From Dictyostelium discoideum (Eukaryota), in assembly GCA_000004695.1 (NCBI GenBank), contig CM000150.2, forward strand, positions 4,064,001-4,128,000: 64,000 nt of DNA, given 5' to 3'. The notes under the pieces were generated by a model, which did no database searches, was not told where the DNA came from, and saw only the letters and a list, made by a program, of their open reading frames with translations. A program made the position numbers and the translations under genes. Positions 8,061-61,298 of the stretch are shown piece by piece. The first letter of the stretch is position 1. Every line of letters starts with the position of its first letter.

Positions 8061-8557
8061 TTTGGTTTCTTTGTCTAAAAAAAAAAAAAAAATAATCTTT
8101 TAAGGGTTTAAAAAATATATATATTTAAATTAGATCCTTCGATATTTTGTTCTATTTCTTATTTTGACCGTTTTTTTTATTTAAAATTTTTATTTTTTAA
8201 AATATTTTTTAAAGATTTTAATTTTATATTTTCCCATATTCATAAAAAAATCTTCAGTTTCCCTGCTAAAAACATACCAATTTTATTTATTTTTTTTCAT
8301 TTTTTTTATTTTTTTTTATTTTTTTTATTTTTATTTTATTATTTTATTATTTTATTTTTTTTTTTTTGGTGGGAGAGAGTATGTGTGGGGTAATCAAAAC
8401 TTTGAAAAACACAAAACATTTCTTTATCGTTAAACATTTCACCTCGTCTCAATTTTTTTATTTTTTTTTAAATTAATTTTTATTTTTTTTAAATTAAATT
8501 TATATTTTTTTAATTTAAAATTATTTCTAACCTTTTTTAACACAAACATTTTTTTTT

Positions 8558-10912: not shown

Positions 10913-11410
10913 TTAATTTTGTACTAATGCTTGTGAAGCACTTCTAAAAGAATAAATCTTTTTAATTTTTGATTTAAATTTATCACATTCTTCATCAGAT
11001 AATTGTGATAATTGTTCTGAAGTTGTTATACCAAATCCATTAAGCTCTTTAATGGTCTTTGGACCAATTCCTTTAATATTGACTAAATCTATATAAATTT
11101 TATTGTTTTTATTATTGTTTGTAACAGGTGTTGTGATTGGAGTATCAATATTTGTGGTGGTAGTGGGAGTGGTTTCAATTGGTTCTGACAATGATGGGGT
11201 TGTATGGTTGTTATTATTTTTTAATAATGATTCATTTAATATTATATTAGTTGGTTTGGTGGTTGGTTGTTCTTTTTGTTCTTGTTGAATTCTTATTCTT
11301 TTTGCAAATTCTTCTCTAGTTCTCTTTTGAATTTGTGCCCATGGTTTTGCAATGATACCTTTAACATGAGTGAAACCTACTTTACATAAATCAAAAATAC
11401 CCATTTTCAA
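10913..11410 (-). CDS. Hypothetical protein with a helix-hairpin-helix motif (LVNIKGIGPKTIKELNGFGI), about 165 aa
   Basis: Single ORF whose composition is less AT-rich than its flanks. It has a T/N-rich linker and a C-terminal HhH-like motif. Function is unknown. Confidence 0.5.
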   Translation of the reverse strand: MKMGIFDLCKVGFTHVKGIIAKPWAQIQKRTREEFAKRIRIQQEQKEQPTTKPTNIILNESLLKNNNNHTTPSLSEPIETTPTTTTNIDTPITTPVTNNNKNNKIYIDLVNIKGIGPKTIKELNGFGITTSEQLSQLSDEECDKFKSKIKKIYSFRSASQALVQN

Positions 11411-11427
11411 TTAATTTATCTTTTTTT

Positions 11428-11512
11428 TGTTGGAATTGCGAAATGAAAAAAAAAATAAAAAAAAAAATACGAAAAAACTTCACCTTTTTTTTTTAATTTC
11501 GCAATTCCAACA
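11428..11512. repeat. Perfect 17-bp inverted repeat (tgttggaattgcgaaat / atttcgcaattccaaca), extendable to about 21 bp with A/T pairs, with a 51-nt A-rich loop
   Basis: The arms are 11428..11444 and 11496..11512. They lie in the 160-bp spacer between two minus-strand genes (3' UTR of the upstream gene, promoter of the downstream gene). Confidence 0.9.
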
Positions 11513-11571
11513 AAAATAAGAAAAAAAAAAAAAAAAAGTGTTTAGAAAAAAAAAAAAAAAAAATAGAAAAT

Positions 11572-15519
<3,948 letters not shown>

Positions 15520-61225: not shown

Positions 61226-61298
61226 GCTCGATTAGCTCAGTCGGCAGAGCGTGGTGCTAATAACGCCACGGTCGCAGGTTCGATCCCTGCATCGAGCA
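61226..61298 (+). tRNA. tRNA-Ile (anticodon AAT), 73 nt
   Basis: GCTCGAT TA GCTC AGTCGGC AGAGC G TGGTG CTAATAA CGCCA CGGTC GCAGG TTCGATC CCTGC ATCGAGC A. The acceptor stem is 7 bp (GCTCGAT/ATCGAGC). The D-arm carries the A box (TAGCTCAGTCGG). The anticodon stem is 5 bp with loop CTAATAA, giving anticodon AAT. The T-arm is GCAGG/CCTGC with the B box GGTTCGATCC. Confidence 0.9.

Follow-up and report, generated by a model that had tools for sequence, protein, structure and literature searches.

A long, perfect inverted repeat on chromosome 1 of Dictyostelium discoideum AX4 is most probably (about 0.6 by our estimate) a young feature of the AX4 lineage, formed by homogenisation of a weak quasipalindrome in which one arm was copied from the other. 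The repeat, with its spacer and A/T flanks, occupies positions 11424-11516 (unstranded) of the 64-kb stretch analysed here, referred to as the window, and lies between two tandem minus-strand genes, a RINT1/TIP1-family gene upstream and DDB_G0270038 downstream. An earlier sequence-only reading had described the same element and offered regulatory and transposon explanations for it; a mutational origin was absent from that reading and is what the comparative data point to. The hairpin is absent from the relatives, the substitutions that complete it in AX4 are clustered and all create base pairs, and the palindrome is a derived state; that it was derived within the AX4 lineage is almost certain.

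The inverted repeat and its syntenic counterparts

On the plus strand, the arm TGTTGGAATTGCGAAAT (11428-11444) and its exact reverse complement ATTTCGCAATTCCAACA (11496-11512) enclose an A-rich loop of 51 nt (11445-11495), and the perfect stem reaches 21 bp when the flanking T4 (11424-11427) and A4 (11513-11516) are counted. Both the coordinates and the complementarity of the arms agree with the sequence-only reading, as does the AT richness of the surroundings, except that the figure of ~78% is corrected to 76.9% for the window. Beyond one G/A mismatch, an inner A10 (11446-11455) stands opposite a T10 (11485-11494) on the same plus strand, and because of this the repeat search extends the element to imperfect arms of 57 nt with 82% complementarity. 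RNA folding of the two strands gives -35.8 and -39.3 kcal/mol (z = -8.9 and -8.3) and DNA folding -30 and -31 kcal/mol (z about -8), in line with the hairpin-forming capacity that had been proposed for either strand.

An exhaustive scan of the window for perfect inverted repeats with loops of up to 120 nt identified this as the only long one containing G/C. Its arm has six G/C positions, whereas all other perfect arms of at least 16 nt have at most one and are essentially poly-A/T. When the sequence was block-shuffled 100 times with its local composition preserved, the longest arm containing G/C had a mean of 11.8 nt and was in no shuffle longer than 16 nt. Analytically, 5e-5 perfect arms of at least 17 nt, with at least six G/C and a loop of at most 100 nt, are expected by chance in 64 kb, and 0.03 in a 34-Mb genome. 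The repeat is real and far beyond chance, as had been argued from its length and composition. The check for further copies of the 17-mer that the sequence-only reading had proposed was run within the window, where the 17-mer occurs only twice, as the two arms, and no third copy is present with up to 3 mismatches allowed. Elsewhere, the 17-mer gives 88 single matches in 596 Gb of prokaryotic genomes against ~70 expected by chance, and at least 120 single matches in metagenomes; none of the prokaryotic-genome and metagenome matches listed has both arms in one locus.

Six assemblies of relatives were compared with AX4: FIR and FIW (divergent D. discoideum), FIY and FIZ (D. cf. discoideum), and CITU and CITV (two assemblies of D. 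citrinum). The identity of the DDB_G0270038 homologue to the AX4 protein is 95% in FIW, 92% in FIR, 86% in FIZ, 82% in FIY and 57% in CITU and CITV, and the gene order of the RINT1 gene, the helix-hairpin-helix gene (DDB_G0270038) and hmgA is kept in all six. Over 6.5 kb the nucleotide identity to AX4 is 95% for FIR, 94.5% for FIY, 92.6% for FIZ and 87% for D. citrinum, and sites with shared derived states, which conflict in part, support the tree (((AX4,FIR),FIY),FIZ),citrinum; FIW, which is outside the 6.5-kb analysis, was grouped with FIR by common spacer variants. In the alignments the spacers of the six relatives are collinear with that of AX4 across both arms and the loop, which excludes a recent insertion.

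The arms themselves differ. In gene sense, the distal arm reads TTTTTGTTGGAATTGCGAAAT in AX4, TTTTCGTAAAAATTGGGAAAT in FIR and FIW, TTTTCGTTAAAATTGGGAAAT in FIY, TTTTTGATAAAATTGGGAAAT in FIZ and TTTTTGTTTAAATT(G/A)GTAATA in D. citrinum, the relatives being summarised in the alignments as (T/C)GT(T/A)AAAATTGGGAAAT. The number of Watson-Crick stem pairs falls from 21/21 in AX4 to 14 in FIR and FIY, 13 in FIZ, 12-13 in D. citrinum and, by hand count, ~12/21 in FIW. The relatives also fold at the level of shuffled sequence, with RNA z values of +1.6 to -2.2 and DNA z values of -0.1 and +0.4, compared with -8.7 for AX4. A conserved regulatory hairpin is not supported by these alignments, and the finding of only 12-14 of the 21 pairs and of shuffle-level energies in six syntenic relatives argues against the suggestion that the repeat acts as an established 3′-end, stability or translational element.

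Origin of the AX4 palindrome

The alignments place the AX4-specific changes in the arm distal to DDB_G0270038 (11496-11512, minus strand; gene-sense TGTTGGAATTGCGAAAT), which would have been rewritten in the AX4 lineage, and the proximal arm (11428-11444, minus strand; gene-sense ATTTCGCAATTCCAACA) would have served as donor or template. Stem positions are denoted d on the distal and p on the proximal side. In the alignments and the pair table, an AX4-derived AA>GG at d9-d10 (11507-11508, minus strand) pairs with the proximal CC at 11432-11433, and an AX4-derived G>C at d16 (11501, minus strand) pairs with the proximal G at 11439. Position d10 is A and d16 is G in all six relatives, and d9 is A in the four discoideum-complex genomes and T in D. 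citrinum. The three distal-arm differences are private to AX4 among AX4, FIR, FIY and FIZ, the set used for polarisation, and the AX4 bases at 11501 and 11507-11508 are seen in no other genome compared. With each of the three changes, which cluster within 8 nt, a mismatched distal position comes to pair with a proximal base that itself did not change. The proximal core CAATTCC is common to AX4, FIR and FIY and is therefore taken to be ancestral.

The derived sequence GTTGGAATTGCGAA has a reverse-complement match 66 nt off, whereas the ancestral GTTAAAATTGGGAA has none. Across four genomes, 6.5 kb each, this is the sole lineage-specific cluster of substitutions that gains a non-trivial nearby reverse-complement match; the remaining clusters are alignment shifts in homopolymers and repeats. 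With 0.0198 substitutions per usable site on the AX4 branch, the probability that three given mismatches are mended independently while 18 pairs stay untouched is ~1e-6, and it is ~2e-10 for five mismatches mended independently at the same rate. A single three-mismatch repair by independent substitution would be expected among about 1 million suitable quasipalindromes. Independent substitution is statistically inadequate, and we strongly favour a templated origin over it.

The scenario that we propose starts from a tandem-gene spacer that would have been a weak quasipalindrome, with ~16-18 of the 21 positions paired and with much of its symmetry probably supplied by gene-boundary poly-A after the upstream gene and poly-T before the start of the downstream one. 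On the short AX4 branch (~2% substitutions per site), a distal tract would have come to match the proximal arm as its exact reverse complement. The likely route is either templated repair within a transient hairpin or, during replication, a short template switch within a strand or between strands. The copied tract would measure between 8 nt and 15 nt (d7-d21 at most), the outer bound being set by the unchanged d5-d6, and a second small change at the proximal outer end may have completed the 21-bp stem. The loop is uninverted and collinear in all genomes, and thus only the arms would have been homogenised; inversion of the spacer, the other hallmark of intermolecular switching, is not seen.

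Comparable patterns are known from other organisms. In yeast coding genes, a case qualifies when a multinucleotide change on a terminal branch goes together with a perfect inverted repeat whose arms measure 7 bp or more and whose spacer is no longer than 70 bp (PMC8604942); template-switch-like patterns in RNA stems turn several mismatches into perfect pairing together (PMC8794818), and short template switching lies behind clusters of human mutations (PMC5453318). In AX4 the perfect repeat coincides with a multinucleotide change on the terminal branch (11501, 11507-11508), and the orthologous inverted repeat is imperfect in FIR, FIW, FIY, FIZ and D. citrinum (12-14/21). The locus therefore resembles described cases of quasipalindrome correction (Ripley model; Loytynoja & Goldman 2017; Abraham & Hazkani-Covo 2021; Monttinen & Loytynoja 2022) in the passage from imperfect outgroups to a perfect terminal branch, in derived bases that are the reverse complement of the other arm with a donor less than 100 nt away and a spacer of at most 70 nt, and in a long perfect stem that is very unlikely to arise by point mutation. 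It differs from typical cases in its 51-nt spacer, which is at the long end, and in changes that perhaps affect both arms; it also differs in lying in an intergenic gene-boundary spacer of a very AT-rich amoebozoan, not in a coding or RNA gene, with the event inferred from seven genomes. The inner A10/T10 stem and the outer T/A flanks are tracts of the kind found at Dictyostelium gene boundaries (PMC3371697) and able to seed a quasipalindrome; such boundaries would explain pairing that involves A/T only, unlike the 17-bp perfect core with its G/C.

Several points weigh against this origin. Template-switch inverted repeats favour short spacers (PMC8604942) and 51 nt is long for one, with pairing of the inner A10 and T10 leaving 29 nt as the effective loop. 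A single distal tract accommodates the three secure changes. A possible second, smaller change at p16-p17 (11428-11429, minus strand), where the alignments have CCAACA in AX4 and CCAAACA in FIY and FIZ and where AX4 pairs with a distal TG, would call for another event or for repair in both directions. FIY and FIZ also have mismatches at pairs d5-p17 and d6-p16, and the ancestral state of p16-p17 is uncertain because FIR and FIW are deleted there. The proximal outer end is perhaps AX4-derived and distal d5 perhaps a C>T reversal; if p16-p17 and d5 are indeed derived, a single switch is insufficient, and two events or patchy bidirectional repair are required. The transcript ends given in the next section are predictions from sequence rules, and the palindrome is known in the reference only.

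Independent D. discoideum sequence bears on the last of these points. Only two short Logan contigs, L001 and L002, carry the gene; their DDB_G0270038 is identical, with zero substitutions relative to the window over ~900 nt, differ from it only in homopolymer and GAA-repeat length apart from the tip of L001, and both confirm the proximal arm. L001 (SRR28564542) is the sole independent contig that reaches the distal side, and it lacks the distal arm in its terminal 30 nt: these first 30 nt read T13-A-T5-AAA-T8-CGTA, with GTTGGAATTGCG and A10-GGTGAAG missing (L001:1-60 corresponds to window 11470-11530). Perfect palindromes are prone to deletion, and for this reason a real deletion allele is conceivable; the tip could represent such a palindrome-associated allele in another D. 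discoideum strain, or an artefact of the contig tip or library. Look-ups with three open reading frames upstream of the spacer found no further independent D. discoideum contigs over the distal arm.

Selection for pairing in the AX4 lineage is possible, and would also count against a purely mutational account. In a pair count over seven genomes, 70.5% of the cells are paired, compared with 25-52% after sliding of the partners, in a set of related sequences for which the structure was taken from one of them; there are a few double-sided changes, including d16-p6 in FIZ on the opposite arm, and a slight excess of covariation over controls. In FIZ (contig L005), the proximal arm aligned to 11439-11440 changes from ATTTCGCAAT to ATTTTCCAAT, and this G>C mends the d16-p6 mismatch, as AX4 did on the opposite arm, giving a FIZ stem of 10 bp. 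The FIZ change may be either recurrent homogenisation at the quasipalindrome or a coincidence.

Gene boundaries and alternative explanations

The spacer that holds the repeat measures 167 bp. Open reading frame, domain and synteny evidence identifies the upstream gene as a member of the RINT1/TIP1 family, with its last exon at 11572-11739 (minus strand) and its stop codon at 11572-11574. The downstream open reading frame (10913-11404, minus strand) encodes a protein of 163 amino acids with weak helix-hairpin-helix and S13-like matches and 100% identity to D. discoideum AX4 DDB_G0270038; an identical protein is present in a second NCBI assembly (KAM9940831.1), and hmgA lies convergent on the far side of the gene. 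The position between two minus-strand genes had been recognised in the sequence-only reading, but the start codon that it placed at 11410 is a TTG opening the mechanical open reading frame, and the annotated ATG is at 11404. DDB_G0270038 was targeted as a candidate dedifferentiation regulator in an eLife 2020 knockout set and is listed there as one of 17 genes that yielded no simple insertional mutant (PMC7190356); it may for this reason be essential or hard to target.

In Dictyostelium, sense poly-T tracts stop ~2 bp ahead of transcription starts and sense poly-A tracts start ~1 bp past transcript ends (Chang et al. 2012, PMC3371697). On the sense strand the spacer runs in the order distal arm, T, A10, GGTGAAG, T6CGTA, T11-A-T10, C and proximal arm. 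The sense T10 at 11446-11455 (minus strand), which forms the 3′ end of the T11-A-T10 tract (11446-11467) and the inner-stem partner of A10, would put the start of DDB_G0270038 at ~11444, the first base of the proximal arm and thus between the arms. The sense A10 at 11485-11494 (minus strand), directly after the distal arm and aligned as A10 to A15 across five discoideum-complex relatives, is a candidate 3′-end marker of the RINT1-like mRNA, whose predicted end is ~11495-11496. The sole sense AATAAA near the spacer (11585-11590) lies in the RINT1-like coding sequence, 10 nt before the stop, and is conserved in all relatives; if it is used, the mRNA would instead end at ~11555-11571. An AUUAAA variant at 11493-11498 overlaps the inner end of the distal arm, and whether this arm is inside or outside the 3′ untranslated region depends on which of the two signals directs cleavage. 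With a predicted start between the arms and an upstream end at or before the loop, neither normal mRNA would carry both arms, and the inner A10/T10 stem would be ordinary gene-boundary architecture. A tandem duplication of CCCAAACAC and a T-run is present in the RINT1-like 3′ flank of FIR (contig L003, ~2840-2885; window 11535-11560) and not in FIW or AX4.

Homopolymers aside, the block of the spacer with the highest conservation belongs to the loop and not to the arms. This loop core (11469-11480, minus strand), AAGTTTTTTCGT, also written AAGTTTT(TT)CGT, occurs in all seven aligned genomes, D. citrinum among them, and is a candidate for a core-promoter element of DDB_G0270038. It is ~25-35 nt upstream of the predicted start, the expected place for a TATA-like core-promoter element. 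Such a distribution of conservation fits a core-promoter element over a structure under selection. Templated mutation would account for the pair-creating changes. A function is unnecessary to explain the palindrome, and it probably has no dedicated one; its persistence would then be selectively neutral.

Among the alternatives, the one that survives best, although unlikely, is a functional, recently evolved RNA hairpin that acts in cis and was selected in the AX4 lineage. It would require RINT1-like read-through or a long DDB_G0270038 5′ leader spanning both arms, and the hairpin would then, for example, block scanning 20 nt before the AUG or end the read-through by RNase III-type cleavage. 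The predicted fold on the gene-sense strand is very stable (about -36 to -39 kcal/mol over both strands), a 167-bp spacer makes read-through plausible, DDB_G0270038 is a regulated gene and a candidate dedifferentiation regulator (PMC7190356), and the changes on the AX4 branch all create pairs and break none. However, templated mutation yields such changes without selection, the poly-T rule sets the start between the arms, and the hairpin is missing in six of the six relatives.

Slightly less likely again is a cis-element at the DNA level, in which the arms would be inverted copies of a promoter or boundary motif, TTGGAATTG and CAATTCCAA, serving as candidate protein sites where the upstream gene ends and the downstream one begins, with the AX4 conversion duplicating the proximal site. 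The G/C motifs are conspicuous in a spacer of 85% AT, and the arms contain blocks conserved in the discoideum complex (distal AAATTGGGAAATT, proximal CATTTC.CAATTCC). Yet the half-sites are ~68 bp apart from centre to centre, unlike palindromes bound by dimers, and the AX4 change overwrote a distal block conserved in five discoideum-complex relatives, suggesting replacement and not preservation. The palindromic transcription-factor site of the sequence-only reading is disfavoured in the same way, its half-sites being separated by 51 bp and not closely spaced as dimer-bound half-sites are. We know of no Dictyostelium factor motif that matches the arms. Readings of the arm as a heat-shock, STAT or C/EBP-like motif were considered and set aside as resemblances.

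Two further possibilities would make the element a newborn RNA. The broader one, which we regard as doubtful, is a functional RNA element made by template switching, acting as a read-through proto-microRNA or hairpin RNA or by mRNA pairing in trans; in the trans version, on the predicted boundaries, the last nucleotides of the RINT1-like mRNA may be perfectly complementary over 21 nt to the cap-proximal 5′ end of the DDB_G0270038 mRNA, which would couple the two neighbours. If true, the birth of a regulatory RNA interaction would have been caught within the D. discoideum species complex. The narrower one, a little more doubtful, is a nascent microRNA (miRNA) or hairpin-RNA gene born by template switching, with a 21-nt DrnB/RbdB duplex of UUUUUGUUGGAAUUGCGAAAU with AUUUCGCAAUUCCAACAAAAA. 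Dictyostelium miRNAs lie mostly between genes, in sequence with a lower AT content than the DNA around it, and are for the most part specific to one species; at the D. firmibasis site orthologous to ddi-mir-1179 the hairpin is imperfect (Edelbroek et al. 2024, PMC11014262). Template switching has also been proposed as a source of new miRNA hairpins, including young primate miRNAs (bioRxiv 10.1101/2023.04.19.537475, PMC10710096). Like these, the AX4 repeat is an intergenic, lineage-specific hairpin, less AT-rich than its surroundings and with an imperfect counterpart in sister lineages. It is unlike them in its short stem and in the predicted transcription start inside the hairpin.

The shape is precursor-like, and the only Rfam matches at permissive E-values in 11300-11700 are generic miRNA-precursor models, but these score 31 and 30 bits against gathering cut-offs of 86 and 73. 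The perfect stem is only 21 bp long with flanks that pair through A/U only, and the arm sequences are not in the text-form supplements of two Dictyostelium miRNA surveys (PMC11014262, PMC6161686) and gave no match in a full-text literature search. At gathering thresholds Rfam returned only one tRNA in the whole window. Another type of RNA considered was the dictyostelid Class I non-coding RNA. These RNAs have a conserved 11-nt motif, CCTTACAGCAA, beside a short terminal stem; the class was rejected, the motif not being present in the whole window with at most one mismatch and no such Rfam family reaching its gathering score.

A reference error, a cloning artefact or a mutation private to the laboratory lineage is improbable, more so than any of the functional readings. 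The discrepancy of L001, which has zero substitutions over ~900 nt and yet lacks the G/C part of the distal arm and A10-GGTGAAG, speaks for it, as does the fact that no independent sequence in the look-ups made confirms the distal arm. Against it, the relatives align collinearly over flanks and loop, and the difference comes down to three bases, which is not what a misassembly would give; in L001 the deviating sequence is of low complexity and forms the tip of the contig; and the proximal arm is confirmed twice. The miniature transposon footprint of the sequence-only reading, that is, terminal inverted repeats of a miniature inverted-repeat transposable element, is effectively refuted: the resemblance to such elements in perfect 17-21-bp repeats around a short AT-rich interior is superficial, the orthologous spacers are collinear over arms and loop with no empty site or insertion polymorphism, no target-site duplication flanks the repeat, the 17-mer has no further copy in the window, and the arm was perfected by point changes, not by insertion.

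Other features of the window and significance

Two observations elsewhere in the window deserve mention. An AX4-specific G-rich block on the plus strand, GGTGGGAGAGAGTATGTGTGGGGTAATC (8368-8406), lies in the AT-rich spacer upstream of hmgA, where the relatives align poorly and 20 apparent AX4-specific differences are found; it may represent a lineage-specific insertion or replacement in the hmgA promoter. Near the other end, the segment 55220-59988 contains two long open reading frames on the minus strand, one of them coding for a reverse transcriptase (Pfam RVT_1, E = 3e-33); this part of the window is richer in G/C, strongly skewed, and positioned head-to-head with a tRNA-Ile(AAU) gene (61226-61298) at ~1.2 kb. 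We take this arrangement to resemble the tRNA-gene-targeted TRE-type non-LTR (long terminal repeat) retrotransposons of Dictyostelium.

The process that we favour for the palindrome, quasipalindrome correction, is already known, and this locus is most likely a new example of it. As such it would provide a polarised case of a long perfect hairpin with G/C arising, in what is essentially a single step, in AT-rich DNA between the genes of a social amoeba, and the six collinear sister genomes allow each base of the event to be followed. Function does not follow from the presence of a striking palindrome at a gene boundary, which calls for caution in genome scans for regulatory hairpins. The same process offers a mechanism for the origin of some D. 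discoideum-specific miRNA hairpins that have imperfect counterparts in sister species (Edelbroek et al. 2024).

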